From Candidatus Micrarchaeota archaeon (GTDB taxonomy: Archaea > Micrarchaeota > Micrarchaeia > Norongarragalinales > WALN01), in the NCBI GenBank assembly GCA_015522865.1, contig WALN01000064.1:1-35117 (forward strand): a stretch of 35,117 bases of DNA, given 5' to 3'. The notes beneath the pieces are model-generated. The model ran no database searches. It was not told the DNA's origin and saw only the letters and a list, made by a program, of their open reading frames with translations. This document shows, piece by piece, positions 2-35,117 of this stretch. Each line of letters starts with the position of its first letter. Within the stretch, counting starts at the first letter, position 1. The translations under genes were made by a program, and so were the position numbers.

Positions 2-595
2 CTTTTGACAGTCGGCTTTGTAGAACGTTTCAACCCAGGTGTTCAGAAATTTATTGAATTGCTTAAAGATGGCAAGCTTGGTAAGCTCTATGCCATTCGC
101 TCCCACAGAAGAGGACCATTCCCCCCGAGAATAAAGGATGTGGGCGTGGTTATAGATTTAGCAGTTCATGATTTAGACATAATTACCCAATGTGACAAAA
201 ATAAAATCGAGAGAATTTACGCTGAAACTGCGAGAAATGTCAACAGTAAATACGAGGATATTTTGTTTGCTCTGATGAGATTTTCTGATGGAGTGATCGC
301 TTCTGTTGATGTTGACTGGCTTTCTCCAAAGAAGATAAGGAATATAGGTGCAATCGGAGAGAGAGGAAGCCTGTGGTTGGATTATATTACGCAGGATTTG
401 TACTATTATCCTCCGAGGAAAAATGGCTCTTTAGTGAGGGAGCATATCGAGCTAAGGGAAGTTGAGCCATTAAAAAACGAACTTTCGCATTTTATTAGTT
501 GTATCACTGATAAAAGACAGCCAGAAGTTACCGCAGAAGAAGGTGTTTTAGTTCTAAAATTGGCTAAAGAAGTTCTGAAGGACGCATATATTTAA
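2..595 (+). CDS. Gfo/Idh/MocA-family sugar oxidoreductase, C-terminal part (5' end lies upstream of the window)
   Basis: The frame is open from the window edge. The translation (..VGFVERFNPGVQKF.., ..DVDWLSPKKIRN.., ..PLKNELSHFISCI..) resembles the C-terminal dimerisation domain of Gfo/Idh/MocA enzymes. TAA stop at 593-595. It sits next to glycan-synthesis genes. Confidence 0.7.
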   Translation, partial: LLTVGFVERFNPGVQKFIELLKDGKLGKLYAIRSHRRGPFPPRIKDVGVVIDLAVHDLDIITQCDKNKIERIYAETARNVNSKYEDILFALMRFSDGVIASVDVDWLSPKKIRNIGAIGERGSLWLDYITQDLYYYPPRKNGSLVREHIELREVEPLKNELSHFISCITDKRQPEVTAEEGVLVLKLAKEVLKDAYI

Positions 596-599
596 AATT
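584..599. repeat. 16-nt direct repeat gcatatatttaaaatt, left copy (overlaps the stop codon of the oxidoreductase gene)
   Basis: Exact 16/16 match to 1190-1205. The two copies bracket the toxin-antitoxin cassette. Confidence 0.85.
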
Positions 600-602
600 G
601 AA

Positions 603-869
603 TTATTTTTTGTATACTCTATCGTGGTGCTCAAAATCTACTAATGTAACTGTTTTTGTATTTTTGTCAACAGAAAAAATTAATACAAAATGTTTGTCTA
701 TGTGTACTCTTTTGAAGCACTGCATTGGAGCCCGCAAATTTTTGTAGTGTTACGGGTCTTGCACAATTTTTTCAACCTTTTTCATGATTGTTTTATATAA
801 TTTTGCGTTCTTTTCGAATAACTTTTTAAGTTTTTTATCTAGAGCTGGTTTGATTTCGAGGCGGTACAC
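603..869 (-). pseudogene. RelE/ParE-superfamily toxin gene interrupted by an in-frame TAA (750-752)
   Basis: Not in the ORF track. The minus-strand frame starting at GTG 869-867, directly after the antitoxin TGA, reads VYRLEIKPALDKKLKKLFEKNAKLYKTIMKKVEKIVQDP-stop-HYKNLRAPMQCFKRVHIDKHFVLIFSVDKNTKTVTLVDFEHHDRVYKK-stop. The length (~87 codons) and pattern fit RelE/YoeB-like toxins encoded downstream of their antitoxin. Confidence 0.6.
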
Positions 870-1112
870 TCATTTCATCTCGTATCGCTTTCTTAGGTTT
901 CCTAAGCTGCCTACTTTAACGGATTTTTCTTTCTTGATTTTCCCTAGTTTTTTGATGTATTCTGGCCTGAGCTGTGGCTCTAAAATCTCCTCTGCATACT
1001 CTTCAGTTACAATATTTATTGCTTCGGATTTATTTTTGAGATCATATTTAGCCTTTACAATATTCAGAATTCTATTTGCTTTTTTATTTATATTAATAAT
1101 TGCCTGCACCAT
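870..1112 (-). CDS. Putative antitoxin (small DNA-binding protein) of the adjacent RelE-like toxin
   Basis: 80 aa, MVQAIININKKANRILNIVKAKYDLKNKSEAINIVTEEY.., typical of small archaeal antitoxins. GGGGG Shine-Dalgarno-like run 5 nt upstream. Its stop abuts the toxin start. The overlapping + strand ORF 784-1125 is low-complexity and was rejected. Confidence 0.6.
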   Translation of the reverse strand: MVQAIININKKANRILNIVKAKYDLKNKSEAINIVTEEYAEEILEPQLRPEYIKKLGKIKKEKSVKVGSLGNLRKRYEMK

Positions 1113-1129
1113 AATAACCCCCTAATATT

Positions 1130-1150
1130 ATATTAATATCATATTAATAA
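1130..1150. promoter_or_regulatory. Tandem palindromic ATATTAATAT / ATATTAATAA elements upstream of the antitoxin (possible operator or TATA region)
   Basis: 1130-1139 is a perfect 10-nt palindrome. A 9/10 copy follows at 1141-1150, 18-40 nt upstream of the antitoxin ATG. Such strings are common in AT-rich DNA, so confidence is low. Confidence 0.25.
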
Positions 1151-1189
1151 ATATTTTCCGCTACACAAATTTCACTATTTTTAGAGAGT

Positions 1190-1205
1190 GCATATATTTA
1201 AAATT
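1190..1205. repeat. 16-nt direct repeat gcatatatttaaaatt, right copy; also a TATA-like element about 26 nt upstream of the ATG at 1224
   Basis: Exact match to 584-599. The TATA-like core atatttaaa and its spacing are consistent with a leaderless or short-leader archaeal transcript. Confidence 0.8.
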
Positions 1206-1223
1206 TAGAAGTGTACGCTATTT

Positions 1224-2204
1224 ATGCATCTGAGTTTTCTTGTGATTTTGGAAGTATTTTTTGCGTTTTTAATTGCTTATTTTTCTGTTCCTGTACTTAT
1301 ACGAAAAGTTAAACAGAGAGGATTTTTGGCCCCCGATATTTACAAACCTAAACACCCCAAAATTCCCGAACTTGGAGGTTTAGCTATTTTTATTGGCTAT
1401 ATTTTACCACTTCTCTTTGTTCTTCCTTTTATCCCATATCTGGACCAATATCACCTACTTGCAGTTATCGCCACTGTAATTTTAGTTGAGCTTATAGGTA
1501 TTATAGATGATATTTTTGCTATACGCCAAAGCGTGAAAGTCATCCTTCCACTTTTCGCTGCGATACCACTTATGGTAACAGAAGCAGGAACAAGTTCAAT
1601 GTTTTTTCCACTTATTGGAACTGTAAATTTTGGAATATTCTATGCTCTAATTTTAATTCCAATCGGCATAACTGCAGCCGCGAACTTAACAAATATGCTC
1701 GCTGGCTTTAATGGGCTGGAAGCAGGCAACGGGTTCATTGCTGTTCTAACTGTTGCAGTTGCAGCATTGTTACTTGGACATATGGAAACAGTAGTTATTC
1801 TTGCCCCGCTTTTAGGTGCTTTGCTCGCTTTCCTCAAATATAATTGGTACCCTGCTAAAATATTTCCTGGAGACTGCGGAACTTTGCTGATTGGGACGGT
1901 AATAGCAAGCGCGGTAATAGTTGGGAATATGGAGCTGGTTGGCGTGCTTTCCCTTTCCCTTTACATTTTTAACTTCCTTTTGTTTATTTTCATAGTTAAC
2001 AAATATTCTCCGAAGTATAAATTTGGAAAAGTTGACAGCAAAGGGTATATTCATCCACCCGCCAAGGAGTATTTTTATTCGCTCTATTTTCTTATAGCCA
2101 AATACAAAAAAGTGAAAGAAAAAGATATCGTAAAAATTATACTGAAACTTCAGTTGCTTGTTTCCCTGGCTGTTGTTTTATGGGTCTGCTCTCTCGTTTG
2201 GTAA
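1224..2204 (+). CDS. Glycosyltransferase family 4: UDP-GlcNAc:dolichyl-phosphate GlcNAc-1-phosphate transferase (AglH/Alg7/MraY-WecA family)
   Basis: Polytopic membrane protein with the IIDD motif and NLTNMLAGFNGLEAG motif characteristic of the family, and WYPAKIFPGD near the C-terminal part. Confidence 0.8.
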   Translation: MHLSFLVILEVFFAFLIAYFSVPVLIRKVKQRGFLAPDIYKPKHPKIPELGGLAIFIGYILPLLFVLPFIPYLDQYHLLAVIATVILVELIGIIDDIFAIRQSVKVILPLFAAIPLMVTEAGTSSMFFPLIGTVNFGIFYALILIPIGITAAANLTNMLAGFNGLEAGNGFIAVLTVAVAALLLGHMETVVILAPLLGALLAFLKYNWYPAKIFPGDCGTLLIGTVIASAVIVGNMELVGVLSLSLYIFNFLLFIFIVNKYSPKYKFGKVDSKGYIHPPAKEYFYSLYFLIAKYKKVKEKDIVKIILKLQLLVSLAVVLWVCSLVW

Positions 2205-2211
2205 TATTATT

Positions 2212-3219
2212 TTAGAGTGTAATAAAAGCTATTGAAAAAATAGCAAATAAGATTTGAATTAGCCATAATGAATATACTATTTGTTTCTCATTTAAGTTGA
2301 AGTATTTCATTAGTACATGGGAAAGCGAATAAATTTTTCCGTTATATTTTAAATTTTTGTTCTTATCCAACCTCCCGAAATTTTCTGCTTGAAATTTACT
2401 TCTTGCCTTTAGAAAAAACTCGATAATTTGGGGCCCCATCAATATTATCGCTGCAACTTCTACATTTGCAATTATTGAAATAGTTCCTATTGCTCCTCCT
2501 ATTAAATATGTGAGCGAGTTACCGCCCAAAATTTTCGCTGGATACCAGTTATAAATTAAGAATCCCAAGCATACTGCAACAAGCGCGGTTGATAATAATG
2601 TTCCTATCTGGGAGCCAGCTATAAAGGAAATTAATGCCATAGTGATGCCCGCGATTATTCCAATACCTACTTCCAAACCATTAAACCCTGCCAGTAAATT
2701 AACTAAATTTGAGGAGGCAACTATCCAGAGCGGAATAAAAATTATTGAATATGCAACACCAAAATTTACTACGCCTAAAAACGGTATTAGAATCAATGTA
2801 GAATGAAAAACAGCAATGAGCGGAAGTGATGCAAACAGTGGAAGAAAAACTCTATAAATTTGCTTCATATGAACAAAATCCTCAACAATACCAATAGTTG
2901 CAATCAGAGTAATTGAAAGAATAGCTGCCAAGTAGTAAATTAGTTCTTCTTTTGCTATAAAACTCATAATAATTAAAGCCGTTACAAGAAGAGAGAAGGT
3001 CACTGCTATACCTCCTCCGTTCACCACTCTGTATTTAGCAAATTTTTCCGAATATTCTTCTTTCAGTTTCTTTATCTCTCTCAATGAGAGCTTTTGTGGA
3101 ACTTTGTTTAAATCCACTATGAAAAATTTTCTTTTTTCAAAAGCAGCCAAAACAGCAAAGGTTGAAAATAAAGAAAGTAAAAAAGCAAATAAAAAAATTC
3201 CACAAAGCACTAAACACAT
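2212..3219 (-). CDS. Second glycosyltransferase family 4 GlcNAc-1-P transferase paralog
   Basis: Has VEDF, NLVNLLAGFNGLEVG and WYPAKILGGN motifs parallel to the neighbouring paralog. Convergent with 1224-2204, with only 7 nt between the stops. Confidence 0.8.
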   Translation of the reverse strand: MCLVLCGIFLFAFLLSLFSTFAVLAAFEKRKFFIVDLNKVPQKLSLREIKKLKEEYSEKFAKYRVVNGGGIAVTFSLLVTALIIMSFIAKEELIYYLAAILSITLIATIGIVEDFVHMKQIYRVFLPLFASLPLIAVFHSTLILIPFLGVVNFGVAYSIIFIPLWIVASSNLVNLLAGFNGLEVGIGIIAGITMALISFIAGSQIGTLLSTALVAVCLGFLIYNWYPAKILGGNSLTYLIGGAIGTISIIANVEVAAIILMGPQIIEFFLKARSKFQAENFGRLDKNKNLKYNGKIYSLSHVLMKYFNLNEKQIVYSLWLIQILFAIFSIAFITL

Positions 3220-11326: not shown

Positions 11327-12349
11327 CTACCCAAAAAAGCTTCTTGCAAGTTCGTATAATTCTGCATTAACCGTTTTTGTTCCTTCTGTAGCTTTTTTTA
11401 AATCAACTGGCGTTATTTCTTCGCCTTTAACTGCAGCCATCTTCCCAAACCTACCTTCATCAACAAAATCTATTGCAGCAGCTCCCAGTCTAGTCCCCCA
11501 TATTCTGTCAGTTGATGTTGGCGCGCCGCTTCTTTGAATATGCCCTAAAACAACTGCCCTTGTTTCAATGCCTGTTTTCTTTTGTATTAATTTTGCGATT
11601 CTCTCGCCAGTTTTCAATTCAGATAAATTGATATGGCCGAAGGCGTCTTTCTCCACCTTTTCCAGAACATCCACTTTCACCCCTTCAGAAACCGCTATAA
11701 TTGCATAGCTTTTTCCCTGCTTTTTTCTCTCCACCAATCTCTCGCATAATCCGTCCAAATCAAGTGGGACTTCTGGAATTAGTACTGCATGCGCTCCTCC
11801 TGCCAAGCCAGCCATCAACGTAATCCAGCCCGCCTGCCTTCCCATTAGTTCAACAACAATAATTCTGTGATGGGATTTCGCTGTTGAATGCAGACGTTCA
11901 ATAGCATTTGTTGCTGTTTGTGTTGCAGTATCAAAGCCCAATGTGTAGTCTGTGAAATTTAAATCTCTGTCAATTGTTTTTGGAACCCCGACAATACGCG
12001 CTCCTTTTTCATACAACTTAGCAGCAACTCCCAACGTGTCCTCGCCGCCCATTGCGATTAATGCGTTAATTTCTAATTTTTCTAAATTTTTGATTATTTG
12101 CTCTGAGCCGCCTTCGATAGCAAATGGGTTTGTCCTTGAACTTCCCAAAATAGTTCCACCCTCTTTATAAATATCTTCAACATCTTTTCTTTTCAACTCA
12201 AATATTTGTGGGGGGCTAAGCAATCCTTTCCATCCATCTCTTATCCCGACAATTTCATAACCTTTTTCGATCCCTCTTATAACTACCGCTCTTATCGCTG
12301 CATTAAGGCCGGGCGCATCTCCCCCGCCTGTCAGAACACCTATTTTCAT
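11327..12349 (-). CDS. pfk: 6-phosphofructokinase, PfkA family, with residues suggesting PPi dependence
   Basis: MKIGVLTGGGDAPGLNAAIR N-terminus, MGGEDTLG and VGVPKTIDRD motifs. Confidence 0.9.
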   Translation of the reverse strand: MKIGVLTGGGDAPGLNAAIRAVVIRGIEKGYEIVGIRDGWKGLLSPPQIFELKRKDVEDIYKEGGTILGSSRTNPFAIEGGSEQIIKNLEKLEINALIAMGGEDTLGVAAKLYEKGARIVGVPKTIDRDLNFTDYTLGFDTATQTATNAIERLHSTAKSHHRIIVVELMGRQAGWITLMAGLAGGAHAVLIPEVPLDLDGLCERLVERKKQGKSYAIIAVSEGVKVDVLEKVEKDAFGHINLSELKTGERIAKLIQKKTGIETRAVVLGHIQRSGAPTSTDRIWGTRLGAAAIDFVDEGRFGKMAAVKGEEITPVDLKKATEGTKTVNAELYELARSFFG

Positions 12350-12417
12350 TTTCCTGCCTCGCTTAATTTACAAATTTACGCCGTAAGTTTAAAATTCTTA
12401 AATTAAAAATCTAAAAA

Positions 12418-13434
12418 TTATTCTCCTCTTATTACTTCAACATCTTCGATTCTTTCAGCATATTTTTTATACCATGGAGTTCCGTGTTCTCTTACTATTG
12501 ATGAAAGCTCATTTAATCTTTCTATTCCGGTTGTTTTTAGAAATTGTTCTAAGTTTTTGTTAATCACTCCTTCTTTCCATATCGCTCTCCCAGCAAGAAA
12601 TCCGGAAGCGCCATTTCTCGCTGCATACTTTACATTCTCTTTGAACTCTGGATAATCCACTCCAGCACTGAGCACAACCCACGGAGTCCTCGAAGCTGTA
12701 TCCAATCTTCTGCATGCTACGTCCGGGTCTTGTTTGAGTGATTTTGCATATTTTAAGTTGAGCGGGAATTCTGATTTTAAGACATCTATTCCGTATTCTT
12801 CTCTTGTCAGCTCTTCGGCGGTTTCGATGACAATATCCGGCTTGAGCTTAGCAAATTTTTCTGGTTCTTTTTTTGGATGCGGTTCCCCCTCAATTGGGTG
12901 TGCCACTGGTTCAAGCAAGAATGCGATATCAAATTTTTTGCATGCCTCTCCCACTTTCCTTATCATTTCTTCCTGATGCTCATGTGTTGGTCCATTTTTT
13001 CTATAATAAACAAGCATTTTCACTGCAGCTCCTCCCCTCTTTTTTATTTTTTCTACTGCTCCCTCCGCGTCCAGGCCATCGAATATACTTACCTTTGGAG
13101 CGTATTCTCCTTGTCCGCCATAGCCAGAGGATTCAATTCCCATAAGCATCCCTACATATGACTTAATCTCGCAGCTTTTTAGGAATTCTCTCTCGTACGA
13201 AAATTGAGGGTCAACTAATACTCCAGATGCGGTATTCTGCGTGCCTCTGCCCGCCAAATATTTTATTAAATCTCTTTTAACTTCCTTCATTTGTTCTGGG
13301 GTTACTGAACCTGGGTCTTTTGGATTAATCATTTTTTTGAGCGAGCCTCTCTGGTCTGTTGCCACCATCATGAATAGCCCTTCTATACTTGCAATATGTA
13401 TAATACCTTCAAATTTTCCATTTGTTATTTCCAT
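12418..13434 (-). CDS. Class I tagatose/fructose-1,6-bisphosphate aldolase, LacD family
   Basis: Collinear similarity to LacD: DQRGSLKKM, VLVDPQF, AVKMLVYY, FLLEPV, DVLKSEFP (Schiff-base Lys context), VVLSAGVDYPEF and GFLAGRAIW. Confidence 0.85.
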   Translation of the reverse strand: MEITNGKFEGIIHIASIEGLFMMVATDQRGSLKKMINPKDPGSVTPEQMKEVKRDLIKYLAGRGTQNTASGVLVDPQFSYEREFLKSCEIKSYVGMLMGIESSGYGGQGEYAPKVSIFDGLDAEGAVEKIKKRGGAAVKMLVYYRKNGPTHEHQEEMIRKVGEACKKFDIAFLLEPVAHPIEGEPHPKKEPEKFAKLKPDIVIETAEELTREEYGIDVLKSEFPLNLKYAKSLKQDPDVACRRLDTASRTPWVVLSAGVDYPEFKENVKYAARNGASGFLAGRAIWKEGVINKNLEQFLKTTGIERLNELSSIVREHGTPWYKKYAERIEDVEVIRGE

Positions 13435-13498
13435 ATAACCTCCTCTTATATTTGTAAATTAAAATAAATAATTTTGTATTTTTTTATATTTTTTTAGT

Positions 13499-13783
13499 CT
13501 ATGTCTTTGTCAATTCTTCAACTTCTTTCTTTCCTTTCTCTATTTCCTGTACTTGCTTTTCGTCCATTTTTTTCAACATCTCTAAGAATTCTCCAACATG
13601 TGTTTTTTCTTCATTTGCTATGTCTGTTAAAACTACTTTTATGTTCTCATTATTAGTTTCCTCAGCTAACTGCTCGTAGAAATTAATAGCATCTAACTCC
13701 GCAATCAGCCCCCACCTTAAAATTTCTTTATCTTTGAGTTTCTGGTTGAGATTTTTCAAGCTCATAGGAACGCTACCAAGCAT
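13499..13783 (-). CDS. Ferritin-like / encapsulated-ferritin (EncFtn)-like small protein
   Basis: 94 aa. ELDAINFYEQ...ANEEKTHVGEF matches the E..Y / EExxH di-iron ligand pattern of EncFtn/rubrerythrin-like helices. Confidence 0.65.
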   Translation of the reverse strand: MLGSVPMSLKNLNQKLKDKEILRWGLIAELDAINFYEQLAEETNNENIKVVLTDIANEEKTHVGEFLEMLKKMDEKQVQEIEKGKKEVEELTKT

Positions 13784-13834
13784 CTTATCGCCTTTTTAAT
13801 TAACCTTACTTCTTTTTTAAATATTATCCATTAA

Positions 13835-14869
<1,035 letters not shown>

Positions 14870-14904
14870 TTCTCCCCAACAAAATAAAGTTAAGGAGTGA
14901 ATGC

Positions 14905-16122
14905 ATGGAATTCTATACATGGAAAGATTTTCAACTCAAAGAAAAAAAAATTTTGCTAAGGTTAGACTTGAATTCCCCAGTTAAAAATGGAATTGTTGAA
15001 GATTCGCCGAGGATGAAAGCACATGCATCTACTGTTGAGTTGTTGTTAAAAGAAGGTGCAGGCGTGGTGGTTTTAGCGCATCAGAGCAGGAGGGGAAAAG
15101 CTGATTTTACAGACCTTTCTCAGCATGCACGACTTCTTGAAGAACACTTAGGAAGGGAAGTAAAATTCGTTGATGATGTGATTGGAGAGAAAGCAAAAAG
15201 CGCTATTAAGGAGTTGAAAAGTGGAGAGGTGTTGATGCTTGATAATGTTAGGAAACTTGACAGTGAAACTGCAAAGCTCTCACCAGAGGAGCACGCAAAA
15301 GGAGAGGTGGTTTTGGCACTCGCCCCTTTTTTCGACTATTACATCAATGATGCGTTTTCAGTCTGCCATCGTTCTCAAGCGAGCATAGTTGGCTTCCCCT
15401 TAGTTCTGAGGTCAGGGGCAGGGCCCGTTTTGGTGGGTGAGTATACCGCAGCACAAAAATTAATCGCTGAAATTAAGCGCCCTGTTGTTTATCTAATCGG
15501 CGGAAAAAAAATTGATGAGGTTTTTGAATTAATGAAGACGAATCTTGAGAACGGAAAAGTTGATAAAATATTAGTTGTGGGGGCAATTGCTCAGTTAGCT
15601 TTAGCTGCAAAAGGAGAGGAGTTGAGCGAATCAAACAGAAGCTTTGTTACCCAGAATTATGCCGGGTGGATCGATAAAATGAAAGAGTTGCTTACAAAAT
15701 TTTCTGACAAAATTGTTTTGCCTGTAGATTTTGCCGTTGAGGAAAATGCAGGCAGAGTGGAGTACGAGCTTGATAAATTGCCAGATGTTCTAATAGGCGA
15801 TATTGGCGAAAAAACTATAGCTCAATACAAAGAGATATTAGAAAATGCTAAAACTATTTTTGTCAAAGGGCCCGCAGGAATTTTTGAGAATTCATTGTTC
15901 ATGAAAGGAACAAAAGAATTGTTCAGTTTTGTCGCAGATTTGGATGCGTTTTCCCTCTTGGGCGGAGGGCATTCTTCAACTGCTCTCGAGCAGATTGGGA
16001 TTGAGGAAGGCAAATTCTCACACATCTCTCTTTCCGGCGGAGCACTTGTAGAGTTTTTAACTGGCAAGCCTCTACCTGGAATCGAGGCGCTGAAAAGATC
16101 AAAGCAGTTGTTCTCCTCCTGA
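14905..16122 (+). CDS. pgk: Phosphoglycerate kinase (archaeal type)
   Basis: 405 aa with LRLDLNSP, LAHQSRRG, ND.F...HR and GGGHS motifs. AAGGAGTG SD upstream. Confidence 0.9.
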   Translation: MEFYTWKDFQLKEKKILLRLDLNSPVKNGIVEDSPRMKAHASTVELLLKEGAGVVVLAHQSRRGKADFTDLSQHARLLEEHLGREVKFVDDVIGEKAKSAIKELKSGEVLMLDNVRKLDSETAKLSPEEHAKGEVVLALAPFFDYYINDAFSVCHRSQASIVGFPLVLRSGAGPVLVGEYTAAQKLIAEIKRPVVYLIGGKKIDEVFELMKTNLENGKVDKILVVGAIAQLALAAKGEELSESNRSFVTQNYAGWIDKMKELLTKFSDKIVLPVDFAVEENAGRVEYELDKLPDVLIGDIGEKTIAQYKEILENAKTIFVKGPAGIFENSLFMKGTKELFSFVADLDAFSLLGGGHSSTALEQIGIEEGKFSHISLSGGALVEFLTGKPLPGIEALKRSKQLFSS

Positions 16123-30311: not shown

Positions 30312-31595
30312 TTAAATTTGCCTTTTTTGTGATTTTAAATACTCTATTATGCTGTCTAAGCTTAACATTTTTTCTTCGCCGGTTTTCATATTCTTCAATT
30401 TTAACTTGTTTTCTTCGATCTCTTTTTTTCCCATAATTGCTACGTACGGGATGTCTCTCTTTGATGCATAGTCTAAATTTTTTGAGATCCCCCTGTCCAT
30501 TAAATCGATGTCCGCATTTATTTCTTCACTTCTCAACTTTTCGGTTACTTCTAGTGCTGTGTTAAATGTTTTGATGGGTATTACGAAAACTTTTATTTTC
30601 GTTTTCTTTTTGTATTTTCCTCCAAGCGCTTCGCATATTCTTTCAGTTCCAAAACTTATTCCGACTGCGGGATATTCTCCCCTACCAATAAATTTCCCAA
30701 TCATTCGATTATATCTTCCGCCAGATGCTACTGCTGTTTTTACCTCAGAATTTTTCAAAAAAGTTTCAAAAATTGTCGAAGTGTAATAGCTCAGCCCTCT
30801 TGCAAGGGATAAGTCAATTTTTATATTTTTCAACGACAATATTTTTACAAAACTCAGCAAATTTTCCAGCTCCGTCACCCCCTCCTTTCCTTCGTCATTT
30901 AAATTCAACTTTTTCAGCTTCTGTAAAATTTCATCGTTTTCTCCGACAATTTCAAATAAAGAAAATAATTTTTCAATTACTTTTTTCGGAACTTCTTTAT
31001 TTTTCAGCTCGTCTTCAACCTCCTTTTTGCCGATTTTTTCGAGTTTGTCTATTGAGAGAATCACACTTTCTGCTTTCTCGTTTTCTACGCCCGCGTATTT
31101 TACAAGCCCATTGAGTAGTTTTCTGTTGTTAAGTTTTATTTCAAACTCCAAACCTATTCTCTTGAACACCTCGAACGTAAGCGCCAGTATCTCTGCTTCT
31201 GCTTTCATACTTTTTACTCCAATAATGTCTGCATCGCATTGCGTGAACTCTCTTAATCTGGTTGAGGAAACCGGTCCGTCTCTCCACGCTTCGCCAATCT
31301 GGTAACGCTTGAACGGCAATTTTAAATTCGGATTTTCTTTGATATAACGAGCAAGCGGAACAGTCAGGTCATATCTCAGGCCCAATTTTCTTCTTCCCTG
31401 GTCCTCTAATTTATATGTTTCTTTCAGAATTTCTTCGCCGCCCCCATATTTCGACGCAAGTGTTTCCCACTTTTCCAGAGCAGGCGTTTTAATTGGAACA
31501 TACCCGTATTTCTCAAAAATATTTTTTATAATTTTGATTAGCTCTTGCCTCTGAAATTCTTCCTCTGGCCCGTAGTCTCTGAATCCTTTCAACAT
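30312..31595 (-). CDS. hisS: Histidyl-tRNA synthetase
   Basis: MLKGFRDY.., LRYDLTVPLARY, FKRYQIGEAWRDG, GGRY and GISFG motifs. Start set at the first ATG; the track start at 31607 is a TTG. Confidence 0.9.
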   Translation of the reverse strand: MLKGFRDYGPEEEFQRQELIKIIKNIFEKYGYVPIKTPALEKWETLASKYGGGEEILKETYKLEDQGRRKLGLRYDLTVPLARYIKENPNLKLPFKRYQIGEAWRDGPVSSTRLREFTQCDADIIGVKSMKAEAEILALTFEVFKRIGLEFEIKLNNRKLLNGLVKYAGVENEKAESVILSIDKLEKIGKKEVEDELKNKEVPKKVIEKLFSLFEIVGENDEILQKLKKLNLNDEGKEGVTELENLLSFVKILSLKNIKIDLSLARGLSYYTSTIFETFLKNSEVKTAVASGGRYNRMIGKFIGRGEYPAVGISFGTERICEALGGKYKKKTKIKVFVIPIKTFNTALEVTEKLRSEEINADIDLMDRGISKNLDYASKRDIPYVAIMGKKEIEENKLKLKNMKTGEEKMLSLDSIIEYLKSQKRQI

Positions 31596-31712
31596 GTTAC
31601 CACACAAATTATGAATTAGTTATTTAAATAATTGATTAGGCAACTAATAATTTCCCTGTTTATATTTTGTGCAGCGCAGTTAATTATTTAACTAAAATTT
31701 AAGTAATGGAAT

Positions 31713-33185
31713 TTGGGGGATACTATCAAATATATTTATGTAGCAGGGCAGCGCAAAACGTTAATTGCCACTTTTCTGAAAAAGGGTACCTTTACGGCTT
31801 CGTATGCCTACTTCAACAACAACGTCGAACCAAATTTCATAATTTTTAGGCACAATTTAAATGCAGAGTACTGGGTGCCGGAATCTGAGGTGCTCAGGAT
31901 GAACAAATTCGGAGAAAAATACTTGGGCCGTCGGTTTACTGAGAGCATATTAAATAAAGTTAAGCTGAATGTTAATGCTGCATGGAAGATGGTGGAAAAA
32001 TTAAATAGGCTTGAATTTTCTGCGCTATCTAACGCAAAGCTTATTGAGTTATTTTCCCAAATAAATTCAATACTTTTGCAGCTGATGGGCGATTTATTTT
32101 TATCGCAGGATTTTTATACTAAAGCAGTGGAGGAGCGGCTCATCTCTTTGCTCTCGTCCAAATTCAAAGACAGGAAAAAAGTTGATTATTATCTAGGAAT
32201 TTTACTTAAAGATTATGATTTGGATGCAATCCAACGCGAAGAGATAGATTGGTATAATTATGTGCTGAACCACAAAAATATAAAACGTGAGGAACTGATG
32301 AGTTATGTTTTGCGCAATGGATGGATGATTTATAATGCATTTGATTATGAAACTGCGTACAATTTTATATTGGAGAGATATAGAAAGACTGAAAATATGG
32401 GCGAGAAAGAAATTCAAAAGAGAATTAAAAATATTCTGCTCAATAAACAAAAAGCCAGAGAAGAATTTAATGCTCAAAGCGAAAAACTTACCCCCAAAAT
32501 GCTTGAGTTAGCTACCATCTTGCGGGATTTAGCTAAGAACAGGCTCGAAGTGAAATTGGCTACGAATTCCTTAGAAGTCGCTCTAAACCTCAAATTATTG
32601 TATTTCCTTTCCAAAAAATTTAACTTAAATTTCTGTGATTTGTTGGATGGATATTTGCCTGGAGATATAAGGAAGTTGTTGGAAAGTGGCTTTCGTGTTT
32701 CTGGTGATAAAATTAAGAGACGGAAGGAGTTCGTCTCGTTTGTTCAAATTAACGGAAAATTTGATGTTGCGAGCGGTAATGACGCTATGAATAAAATTGA
32801 TAATTTATTAAGTAGTTCGAGACCAAAGAAAGAGCAGAAAGTGCTGAAAGGTAATGTTGCTTCTATTGGCAGTCCCTCAGTTGTAACTGCTACCGCAAGG
32901 ATAATACGTTTGGGAAATGATTCCGAGTTGAGAGAAGACATAAACAGATTTCAAAAAGGCGAAATAATCGTTACTATTATGACTCAGCCCAATATGGTCC
33001 CAATAATGAAAAAAGCTGCAGCGGTTATTACTGACGAAGGAGGCATATGCAGCCACGCAGCTATTATTTCCAGAGAATTTAACATCCCATGTATAGTAGG
33101 AACAAGGGCAGCAACAAAAATTATAAAAAATGGCGACAAAGTCACAATAGACACTTCAGAAGGAATTGTCAGAATTATAAAATAG
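31713..33185 (+). CDS. PEP-utilizer swivel (phosphohistidine) domain protein with an uncharacterised ~390-aa helical N-terminal region
   Basis: The C-terminal ~100 aa read ..GEIIVTIMTQPNMVPIMKKAAAVITDEGGICSHAAIISREFNIPCIVGT.., the PEP-utilizing enzyme mobile domain with the catalytic His. No ATP-grasp (PPDK_N) domain or PEP/pyruvate TIM barrel is visible. TTG start. Confidence 0.7.
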   Translation: MGDTIKYIYVAGQRKTLIATFLKKGTFTASYAYFNNNVEPNFIIFRHNLNAEYWVPESEVLRMNKFGEKYLGRRFTESILNKVKLNVNAAWKMVEKLNRLEFSALSNAKLIELFSQINSILLQLMGDLFLSQDFYTKAVEERLISLLSSKFKDRKKVDYYLGILLKDYDLDAIQREEIDWYNYVLNHKNIKREELMSYVLRNGWMIYNAFDYETAYNFILERYRKTENMGEKEIQKRIKNILLNKQKAREEFNAQSEKLTPKMLELATILRDLAKNRLEVKLATNSLEVALNLKLLYFLSKKFNLNFCDLLDGYLPGDIRKLLESGFRVSGDKIKRRKEFVSFVQINGKFDVASGNDAMNKIDNLLSSSRPKKEQKVLKGNVASIGSPSVVTATARIIRLGNDSELREDINRFQKGEIIVTIMTQPNMVPIMKKAAAVITDEGGICSHAAIISREFNIPCIVGTRAATKIIKNGDKVTIDTSEGIVRIIK

Positions 33186-33191
33186 TTTCAG

Positions 33192-34700
33192 TCACCTGCT
33201 TTTTATAATTCTTACAACGCCATTATTTGCATCCACCTCTACAAATTTTCCGTCTTTCAAAATTGATGTTGCTATTTTTGTTCCCATAACGCACGGTATG
33301 CCCAAAGCCTTTGAAATTAATGCGGCGTGGCAGGTAACCCCATTTAAATCAGTTACAATTGCTGACGCTTTCATCATAGCGGGCAATATATTTGGGTCTG
33401 TTTGGTAGGCTACAAGTATATCGCCTTTTTTCATTTTTTTCATTTCTTTAGGGTCTTCTATTATTTTCGCTACTCCCCTTACTTTGCCCGGATATGCACA
33501 CAGTCCACTTAAAAATTTCGTTTTTCTTTTTTTCTCTTTTTTTATGTTTATTTTCTCCATGAATTTTCTTGCTTTTTTTCCAGTCAGCCATTTTTCTCCC
33601 TTTTGGGTAAAATCTCCAACAGTGTATTTGAGCCTTTCATTAAGCTCTTTCCTTGAAAATTTTCTTTTGAGTATCGCATCCCTCATCTCGAATGGGCTGA
33701 TCACGCGCATCTGCTCCAAATTCAGCCCGGCTCTTTTTCCCATTTCTCTAAGAAGAGATTCTGTTGCATAATATCCATAGAACATTGCATCTTTTCTGAA
33801 AGCTTTTATTGAAATTATTTTTCTTGCCTGTTCAAAAAGCAACTGATGTTTCTTGTCTATGCCAATTGTTCTTGTGTAGTGTTCCTGCATTTTCTTAATT
33901 CTCAAAGGAGTCCGTTCCATTTTTTTGACCATTTTTTGTACGTCTATATCCTGAGAAATTAAATCTACCAGTCGCTCAATAATCATCTTTTTGTTCCAAG
34001 CAGGGCCTTTGTATTCATATCCTATCCAACCAAATTTTTCCACATGCTCTTCGATTTCCTTTCCGGCTATCCTGTTTATTCTTTTTTCAATCTCTTTTTT
34101 TGTCCTTTTGTCTCTAATTGTATTTTTGAGTTTGTTGGCAATCTTCAAAATATTTTGTTCTTCTTTTCTTTCAATACTTTCTTCTGTGGGCGTACTTAGT
34201 ATTGCGTATACTTCCTCTACTCCATATTTTAATCCCTTCCTTTTTATCTGCTGCGAAAGGTATTTTTTGAGATGAGTAGATAATAGATGATCCTTAATTT
34301 CTATAATGAACGGAACGATTCCCGGCAGTATTGCTTCCTGATTAGCTTTCCAGAACCTTTCATATAATTTTATGAGCTTTTCATCAGAGTATTGTGGCAT
34401 ATTCATTTTATAAATCGCTCTAGAAACCTTAAATAAATTTTTAGCATTTTTGAAATGTATTTTATGTAATTTATCGAACCATGCAAGATTATTTAACATT
34501 TTTCTAAAAGCATATTTTTCTTTGCTCTCGAATTCTTTTTTATCTAGAAAATAATTCGAGTTTCCCTTTTTTATTTCTATTATAAACTCTCTGAACAAAG
34601 GTATGCTTACTATGTTTAGCCTGCGGGTGAAAAGATACGCAGAATAGGCATGCATAAAAACTTCTCTTCTAACTTTTAATATCGCAATCCATTCTTTCAT
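33192..34700 (-). CDS. Paralogous PEP-utilizer swivel domain protein
   Basis: C-terminal ..GDILVAYQTDPNILPAMMKASAIVTDLNGVTCHAALISKALGIPCVMGT... The N-terminal region is collinear with 31713-33185 (for example YSDEKLIKLY versus LSNAKLIELF, and FGWIGYEY versus NGWMIYNAF). Confidence 0.7.
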   Translation of the reverse strand: MKEWIAILKVRREVFMHAYSAYLFTRRLNIVSIPLFREFIIEIKKGNSNYFLDKKEFESKEKYAFRKMLNNLAWFDKLHKIHFKNAKNLFKVSRAIYKMNMPQYSDEKLIKLYERFWKANQEAILPGIVPFIIEIKDHLLSTHLKKYLSQQIKRKGLKYGVEEVYAILSTPTEESIERKEEQNILKIANKLKNTIRDKRTKKEIEKRINRIAGKEIEEHVEKFGWIGYEYKGPAWNKKMIIERLVDLISQDIDVQKMVKKMERTPLRIKKMQEHYTRTIGIDKKHQLLFEQARKIISIKAFRKDAMFYGYYATESLLREMGKRAGLNLEQMRVISPFEMRDAILKRKFSRKELNERLKYTVGDFTQKGEKWLTGKKARKFMEKINIKKEKKRKTKFLSGLCAYPGKVRGVAKIIEDPKEMKKMKKGDILVAYQTDPNILPAMMKASAIVTDLNGVTCHAALISKALGIPCVMGTKIATSILKDGKFVEVDANNGVVRIIKSR

Positions 34701-34783: not shown

Positions 34784-34906
34784 GGCGGCGATGGTGCAGT
34801 GGTTAACATCTCGGACTGTGGATCCGAGGACCCGAGAAGCCTTTCTTTCTGAAGAAAGAAATCCTTGGGAAAGAAAGACAAGGGAATTCGAGTCTCGGTC
34901 GCCGCC
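34784..34906 (+). tRNA. tRNA-His (anticodon GTG at 34818-34820) with encoded G-1 and a 50-nt intron in the T-arm (between positions 53 and 54); CCA not encoded
   Basis: Eight-bp acceptor including G-1:C73 (GGCGGCGA / TCGCCGCC), T8, A14, anticodon stem TCGGA/TCCGA, loop CTGTGGA. The T-stem CCGAG (34832-34836) is separated from T-loop TTCGAGT plus CTCGG (34887-34898) by 34837-34886. Confidence 0.75.
34837..34886 (+). other. Non-canonical tRNA-His intron (position 53/54)
   Basis: aagcctttctttctgaagaaagaaatccttgggaaagaaagacaagggaa contains a CTTTCTTTC/GAAAGAAAG-type hairpin (34842-34861) of the same family as in the 49-nt module. Confidence 0.7.
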
Positions 34907-34937
34907 CTTAGCTCTCATTCTATTCTTAGCATTCTTT

Positions 34938-34986
34938 CTTTGGAACAACTTAGTACTTTCTTTCTTTTTAAGAAAGAAAGGACCAG
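34938..34986 (+). repeat. 49-nt shared module, His repeat unit 1
   Basis: ctttggaacaacttagtactttctttctttttaagaaagaaaggaccag is 47/49 identical to 22912-22960. Contains an 11-bp hairpin at 34956-34980. Confidence 0.9.
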
Positions 34987-35037
34987 TTCGAGTCTCGGTC
35001 GCCGCCCTTAGCTCTCATTCTATTCTTAGCATTCTTT

Positions 35038-35086
35038 CTTTGGAACAACTTAGTACTTTCTTTCTTTTTAAGAAAGAAAGGACCAG
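35038..35086 (+). repeat. 49-nt shared module, His repeat unit 2
   Basis: Identical to 34938-34986. Confidence 0.9.
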
Positions 35087-35117
35087 TTCGAGTCTCGGTC
35101 GCCGCCCTTAGCTCTCA

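Follow-up and report, generated by a model that had tools for sequence, protein, structure and literature searches.

Split phosphotransferases of the rifampin phosphotransferase (RPH) type are an enzyme class already known from published work. In HpeHI of Rhodococcus, HpeI is a stand-alone ATP-grasp protein, and HpeH combines an RPH-like binding domain with a swivel domain whose conserved histidine is essential (Dexter 2025, PMC12167813). CreHI of Corynebacterium and the phenylphosphate synthase PpsAB of Thauera are homologs of HpeHI, and the biochemistry of HpeHI demonstrates that the split architecture works as a dikinase (PMC12167813). So far, such enzymes have been known as one-grasp/one-acceptor enzymes of bacterial phenol and acetophenone catabolism. 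For DPANN archaea, metagenome-assembled genomes have been annotated in passing with "phenylphosphate synthase" without a carboxylase (PMC8091004), and rph-like matches in the candidate phyla radiation (CPR) have likewise been mentioned in passing (PMC8651080); no description of a DPANN/CPR expansion or of a one-to-many layout was found in the literature. Here, we analyze two genes, termed A and B, near the end of a 35,117-nucleotide contig (WALN01000064.1 of assembly GCA_015522865.1, hereafter the window) from a Candidatus Micrarchaeota archaeon. Judged by sequence profiles, predicted structures, and analogy to the systems above, A and B are probably acceptor subunits of a split RPH-type, ATP-dependent small-molecule dikinase of the HpeH/CreH/PpsA kind, and they belong to a set of 12 such genes in this genome.

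Domain composition of the A and B proteins

Gene A (31713..33185, plus strand, TTG start) encodes a protein of 490 amino acids, in which a predicted acceptor-binding domain is followed by a swivel domain; gene B (33192..34700, minus strand) encodes 502 amino acids with the same two-domain layout. The ORF (open reading frame) list bears out both genes and their convergent arrangement, as described in an earlier reading made without database searches (the sequence-only reading); 6 nucleotides lie between the stop codons. The sole Pfam match in either protein is the PEP-utilizers swivel domain PF00391, located at 32949..33164 (plus strand, residues 413 to 484, E = 3e-25) in A and at 33219..33431 (minus strand, residues 424 to 494, E = 2e-22) in B. 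Neither protein was matched by the Pfam models for the ATP-grasp domain PPDK_N (PF01326) or for the PEP-utilizers_C barrel. Two statements of the sequence-only reading thus hold, namely, that both proteins end in the mobile histidine domain, with the motifs GGICSHAAII and NGVTCHAALI being present, and that both lack an ATP-grasp domain as well as a phosphoenolpyruvate (PEP)/pyruvate TIM barrel.

The catalytic histidine is His448 in A (nucleotides 33054-33056, motif GGICSHAAIISRE) and His458 in B (nucleotides 33327-33329, motif NGVTCHAALISKA). It lies in a motif of the GGxxxH type in both proteins and is invariant in both family alignments. The NCBIfam models for PEP synthase, RPH, PigC/RedH, and the PRK08296 "hypothetical protein" group aligned with the last ~110 to 120 residues only, at scores far under their cutoffs, and single-sequence phmmer searches against PDB sequences returned swivel-domain matches only. 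In sequence, the swivel is closest to that of the archaeal PEP synthases 8a8e and 9dae (E = 1e-24, or 1e-43 with a profile), and the swivels of the A/B-type proteins of this genome, hereafter called modules, are 43 to 58% identical to the swivel of its own PEP synthase. PSRP/DUF299, which would phosphorylate a conserved Thr, was looked for and not found.

Relationship of the N-terminal region to RPH

The sequence-only reading regarded the N-terminal regions of the two proteins as homologous to each other and as belonging to no family that it recognized. A BLASTP comparison of A with B aligned the C-terminal ~190 residues and nothing more, and a family hidden Markov model (HMM) was therefore needed to establish homology of the N-terminal domains. 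This HMM (364 positions), which was built from the copies in the same genome and from database homologs, aligned with A over positions 3-363 (E = 2e-102) and with B over positions 2-361 (E = 1e-66). AlphaFold2 models of A (predicted local distance difference test [pLDDT] 94.4, predicted TM-score [pTM] 0.91) and of B (pLDDT 86.2) have the same order of elements, i.e., two N-terminal β-hairpins, a long helical region, a further hairpin, and the swivel. Mutual homology is thus not visible by BLASTP and becomes apparent from the family HMM and the similar model topology. With global identities of ~25% in the N-terminal domain and ~45-52% in the swivel domain, the N-terminal domains are, by these profile and model comparisons, homologous and very distant from one another. 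In A, the domain spans 31713..32828 (plus strand, residues ~1 to 372) according to the profile and the AlphaFold2 model, and it is mostly helical in the model, with small β-hairpins at residues 7-14, 42-56, and 340-354. In the models of both A and B, the acceptor domain begins at residue ~1. A word-index search with the N-terminal domain of B yielded one distant homolog.

The origin of this domain was indicated by two types of comparison. In a search of PDB sequences with a profile of 41 full-length A homologs, positions 185-478 aligned with residues 579-878 of Listeria RPH (5HV1-3, 5FBS-U; E = 4e-27), so that the alignment reaches far into the rifampin-binding domain, well beyond the swivel. 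Foldseek searches of the PDB with the models gave the Listeria enzyme (RPH-Lm) as all of the top six matches for A (E = 1e-12, ~600 aligned columns, query TM-score [TMq] ~0.5) as well as for B (E = 1.6e-13 to 1e-11, TMq up to 0.53), at 13-17% identity; all non-RPH matches of A and B cover the swivel domain alone. The N-terminal region of A and B is therefore, on the evidence of the profile match and the whole-length Foldseek matches, identified as a homolog of the rifampin-binding (acceptor-binding) domain of RPH. The family that had gone unrecognized is thereby named, and the earlier proposal of an RPH-like enzyme devoid of its ATP-grasp module is supported by the profile, by the AlphaFold2 and Foldseek results, and by the lack of a PPDK_N match. 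A divergent or degenerate ATP-grasp domain, the finding named in the sequence-only reading as speaking against its own proposal, was considered for the N-terminal region and is ruled out by the AlphaFold2 models and the RPH-Lm matches.

In RPH, R666 and K670 hold the transferred phosphate, and the R666A exchange abolishes rifampin phosphorylation (PMC4844700). In the profile alignment, these residues correspond to R277 and K281 of A, R277 being kept in at least 90% of the 41 homologs. B and the other paralogs have a basic cluster at the site of RPH R666/E667/K670, with uncertain register. One Arg just ahead of the swivel linker (B R356) is kept without exception in both clades of the family described below.

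A family of twelve genes in one genome

The assembly comprises 652 kb in 65 contigs and is 79.5% complete. A six-frame search with PF00391 gave 15 matches, one of them in PEP synthase and the rest in 12 A/B-type genes. PEP synthase (contig C22) is complete, with 778 amino acids, and carries the only PPDK_N and the only PEP-utilizers_C (PF02896) domain of the genome. Ten of the A/B-type genes are complete, and contig ends interrupt the other two, with C4 and C5 each joining C3 or C50 through a common stretch that is identical over 121 nucleotides. Contigs C3, C50, C4, and C5 all end (within their first ~130 nucleotides) in this one 121-nucleotide-identical stretch, which lies inside the swivel histidine motif of two recent paralogs. 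The assembly thus breaks at the 121-nucleotide repeat, showing that the family members themselves cause contig ends. All 10 complete copies have the catalytic histidine, as do the two 75-residue C-terminal fragments of the split genes. The copies are dispersed in the genome; those on C44 and C57 have internal deletions in the N-terminal domain.

A tree of 77 sequences consists of two deep clades. B groups with nine other copies of this genome and with all cluster genes of relatives, and A groups with the copies on C44 and C57 and with database homologs; the description of A and B as paralogs is consequently correct in a distant sense only. For several copies, the partner in the tree is a gene from a different family of the order (support in the Shimodaira-Hasegawa-like approximate likelihood ratio test [SH-aLRT], 97-100); these copies therefore represent old, maintained orthogroups and are not decaying; C4b/C5 is the sole recent duplicate.

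At the DNA level, likeness among the paralogs is confined to the last ~120-250 nucleotides. C29 and C35 are 90.6% identical over 180 nucleotides, with nothing detectable in the rest of the genes, and C4a and C50 are 83.5% identical; for C4b and C5, identity is 77% overall and 100% over the last 121 nucleotides, and the continuation C3b/C50 shows 97.7%. Homogenized swivel segments of this kind would fit gene conversion, or else a very strong constraint on the part that may dock on a common donor. As a separate observation on one of these contigs, C35 carries, ~2.4 kb upstream of its swivel module, three tandem paralogs of 420, 320, and 242 amino acids (positions 2-3190, minus strand; mutual E = 1e-64 to 1e-137).

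An ATP-grasp gene beside the modules in related genomes

Forty genomes of the same order were searched; the counts given here derive from tabulated matches, and related genomes are not independent samples. They hold between 1 and 29 copies of PF00391, mostly grouped like operons together with a single stand-alone ATP-grasp gene. A stand-alone PPDK_N ORF of ~320-370 amino acids occurs in 13 of the 17 genomes with at least six swivel matches and in none of those with one or two, a co-occurrence of the type that the sequence-only reading had proposed to look for. Nine loci were examined, and there the grasp gene shares the strand of one to four modules and adjoins them or lies within ~2 kb; at one locus (L010), four modules are directly followed by the grasp gene. 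The stand-alone grasp resembles those of PEP synthase, RPH, and HpeI, scoring 264 bits to the archaeal PEP synthase 8a8e, 214 to the RPH grasp 5hv6, and 189 to 9goj.

Fusions provided a further link. A phmmer search with the N-terminal domain of A alone against 1.84 billion representative proteins returned 121 clusters, mostly of 460-500 amino acids, and Pfam analysis of eight longer clusters revealed both PPDK_N + N-terminal domain + swivel and N-terminal domain + swivel + PPDK_N fusions. One public metagenome protein, P0128 (1295 amino acids), contains one PPDK_N grasp and two swivel domains, i.e., one donor fused to two acceptor modules. Taken together, gene order, co-occurrence, and fusions speak for an ATP-grasp protein as the donor of several acceptor modules. 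The split phosphotransfer system postulated in the sequence-only reading, whose kinase partner had no candidate at that time, is borne out to the extent that relatives encode this partner as an adjacent, stand-alone PEP synthase-like ATP-grasp gene, and the fusions confirm the link.

Other genes also adjoin the modules in relatives. Regulators of the HTH_10 family (~220 amino acids) do so, and a HAD phosphatase does in two loci. Strong HTH_10 matches (E < 1e-12) are nearly restricted to genomes with at least three swivel matches, mostly expanded ones, and most of them lie within a few kilobases of a swivel match; a few family members have fused HTH domains. The regulator and phosphatase associations fit inducible enzyme modules. 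Across 120 sampled genomes of the phylum, almost all of them ≥80% complete, copy number outside the order of the window is mostly 0-2 and at most 4-6, so that it is this order in which the large expansions are concentrated.

The closest relatives of A are 43-50% identical, and at least two of them are encoded on contigs that also carry genes of bacterial type (hrcA-grpE-dnaK-dnaJ, EF-Ts) and are probably from CPR bacteria. On two such contigs, the A relative (46-47% identical) is followed by a gene for a histidine phosphatase-like protein of ~280-300 amino acids with an RHG motif (L020, 11472-12320; L022, 11469-12362); the two genes look like a conserved pair. In a genome related to the one studied here, the PPDK_N match of PEP synthase (G033:C6:6027-8528) is divided into two parts ~1.5 kb apart within one frame of 1305 amino acids, pointing to an ATP-grasp domain with an intein-like insertion.

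Proposed reaction and alternative explanations

In the reaction that we propose for A and B, the ATP-grasp module on a separate polypeptide would bind ATP. The C-terminal swivel of A or B would then dock on the grasp, where His448 or His458 would attack the β-phosphate and become (pyro)phosphorylated, and would finally swing back to its own N-terminal helical domain, in which a bound, hydroxyl-bearing small molecule would take over the phosphate; the products would be the phospho-substrate, AMP, and inorganic phosphate (Pi). In relatives, the donor would be the one stand-alone PEP synthase-like ATP-grasp protein encoded beside several modules. In the genome studied here, it may be encoded in the unassembled ~20%, or PEP synthase, present once, may supply the function with its ATP-grasp domain. 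Since A and B differ almost wholly in the acceptor domain, different substrates are expected for the two. What the data show is the identity of the domains, the conservation of the catalytic histidine, the expansion of the family, and, in other genomes, the linkage and fusion of its genes to ATP-grasp. The transfer of phosphate, its donor here, and small molecules as its acceptors are inferred from the combined evidence, and we consider assignment of A and B to split dikinases likely.

Several observations weigh against this assignment. At the presumed phosphate site, the residue equivalent to RPH E667 is not conserved, being Leu in A, and the R666 equivalent of B is only approximately aligned. 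An all-against-all comparison of flanking genes found no conserved partner gene beside any of the 12 copies. The donor, too, is missing from the assembly as it stands: a search of the 652 kb with PF01326 and with the stand-alone grasp of a relative, along the lines that the sequence-only reading had recommended, gave no stand-alone ATP-grasp, the sole such domain being located inside PEP synthase; because the assembly is incomplete and broken at paralog repeats, this result does not establish absence. A second genome of the order (G019), which is ~90% complete and has 18 swivel matches in 8 contigs, likewise has a grasp only within PEP synthase. A search of the own genome for the partners seen in relatives (stand-alone grasp, HTH_10 regulator, HAD phosphatase, and several unknown ORFs) returned PEP synthase and an unrelated HAD protein only. 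It thus found no HTH_10 gene, and no homolog of the histidine phosphatase-like gene that accompanies the bacterial-type relatives of A was detected in this genome.

The missing donor lends itself to another explanation, according to which this genome has no stand-alone grasp at all and the ATP-grasp domain of PEP synthase (C22, 778 amino acids) charges all 12 swivels in trans. The PEP synthase copy is indeed the only one found by both queries here, and the same holds for G019; furthermore, the ATP-grasp domain of the own PEP synthase is 50% identical to the stand-alone grasp of a relative, and the module swivels are PEP synthase-like, not only in their identity to the resident enzyme but also in keeping the Thr of GGxT[CS]H, which is not found in RPH and HpeH. 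On the other hand, the incompleteness of the genome and its breaks at paralog repeats leave room for an undetected gene, 13 of the 17 expanded relatives do possess the stand-alone gene, and charging in trans by PEP synthase has never been reported. The archaeal PEP synthase entries 8a8e and 9dae, moreover, contain 24 chains each; if this reflects a large multimer, the grasp already serves its own tethered swivel. We consider charging in trans unlikely, i.e., less likely than an ordinary split enzyme, and retain it as a live alternative. An elaboration of it, in which this archaeon and relatives such as G019 would have no dedicated grasp and the PEP synthase grasp would act as the common donor for a dozen or more diverged modules, whose swivels would be kept alike by gene conversion to fit it, is more doubtful; if true, a housekeeping enzyme would drive a phosphorylation battery of one donor and many acceptors.

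The modules could also function without any ATP-grasp, either as enzymes that pass phosphate from small phosphorylated compounds to acceptors or as ligand-sensing proteins with a part in a phospho-relay or in regulation. HpeH alone moves phosphate from 4-phosphoacetophenone to acetovanillone (PMC12167813), and the histidine phosphatase-like (RHG) gene following each close A relative on the bacterial-type contigs, the HTH_10 regulators and HAD phosphatase adjoining modules in relatives, and the fused HTH domains of a few family members would be in line with such functions. However, gene order and both orders of fusion tie the module to an ATP-grasp domain, a regulator beside an inducible enzyme gene is an ordinary arrangement that implies no relay, and the genome studied here has neither an HTH_10 gene nor the phosphatase-like gene. 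We regard a function independent of ATP-grasp as improbable.

That the A/B-type genes are defunct relics of PEP synthase or RPH genes after loss of the ATP-grasp part is hardly credible, since, although no ATP-grasp is found in or beside the proteins and the copies on C44 and C57 have N-terminal domain deletions, the frames are intact with an invariant catalytic histidine, the folds are confidently predicted, the orthogroups are common to other families of the order, 121 public clusters have the same architecture, and swivel segments are nearly identical between otherwise diverged copies. A status as pseudogenes was rejected in view of the intact copies with the catalytic histidine in the same genome and of the orthogroups shared in the tree.

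Genomic context in the window

Gene A is flanked by the divergent histidyl-tRNA synthetase gene hisS (30312..31607, minus strand; PF13393, E = 9e-52), and next to gene B lies a tRNA-His gene (34785..34906, plus strand), which was detected with Rfam (RF00005, 35.4 bits) and missed by ARAGORN, which reported no tRNA in the window; its GTG anticodon and an intron of ~50 nucleotides near the T-arm were read off the sequence. Both flanking genes provide context only and do not belong to the system. They agree with the sequence-only reading; the pair is, however, not isolated, the genome having 12 such genes. The remaining genes of the window have housekeeping functions (IleRS, ProRS, SMC, PGK, GAPDH, PFK, FeoB, and glycosyltransferases). 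Among them is an ordinary run of glycolytic genes at 11327-16122 (PFK, a DeoC/LacD-family aldolase, GAPDH, and PGK), showing that the organism has kept lower glycolysis. A scan for sigma-70 promoters and terminators was uninformative, the host being archaeal. At 34887-35117, 2.3 copies of a 100-bp unit, 100% identical to one another, run to the contig end, and each opens with the 3′-terminal part of the tRNA-His gene (TTCGAGTCTCGGTCGCCGCCC...); integration at the tRNA could have left them as att-like duplications, or they could be an artifact of assembly at the contig end.

Implications and comparison with known systems

The 12 diverged modules make up ~3% of the assembled DNA of an archaeon of the host-dependent type with a genome of ~0.65-0.8 Mb, and in relatives the number reaches 29. 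The binding domain differs from module to module, whereas the phosphate-carrying domain to which it is joined is conserved. If it is true that each phosphorylates a different small molecule, the family would represent a sizeable, unstudied chemistry of ultra-small archaea and bacteria, with the trapping of scavenged compounds, the inactivation of toxic compounds, and the modification of compounds as plausible roles. The family also offers a natural test case for how one ATP module can serve many partners. None of the current labels "PEP-utilizing enzyme," "PEP synthase," "phenylphosphate synthase," and "rifampicin phosphotransferase" is justified for these proteins.

With PEP synthase, A and B have the swivel in common, which is nearest to that of the archaeal enzymes. 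Unlike PEP synthase, they have neither an ATP-grasp domain nor a TIM barrel, their swivel is C-terminal instead of central, and their N-terminal domain has no counterpart in that enzyme. RPH-Lm (5FBS/5FBT/5FBU, 5HV1-3) is the sole protein of solved structure that aligns with the whole length of A and B; the profile runs from its rifampin-binding domain through the swivel, and the positions of R666 and K670 are kept in A. In contrast to A and B, RPH has its ATP-grasp in the same chain; identity is only 13-17%, the E667 equivalent is not conserved, and nothing points to rifamycins as substrates of A or B.

The split enzymes HpeHI, CreHI, and PpsAB differ from the system described here in being single, whereas this genome has 12 dispersed copies and no grasp subunit in its 79.5%-complete assembly, and the host of A and B is a DPANN-type archaeon without aromatic catabolism. 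The A and B proteins are shorter (~490-500 amino acids) than HpeH (71 kDa), the PRK08296 models match them at the swivel end only, far below the cutoff, and their swivel motif is of the PEP synthase-like form GGxT[CS]H, HpeH as well as RPH having Met at the Thr position. What A and B share with HpeH, CreH, and PpsA is the architecture itself: an RPH-type acceptor domain followed by a C-terminal swivel histidine, with the ATP-grasp on a separate polypeptide whose gene is adjacent in relatives of this genome.

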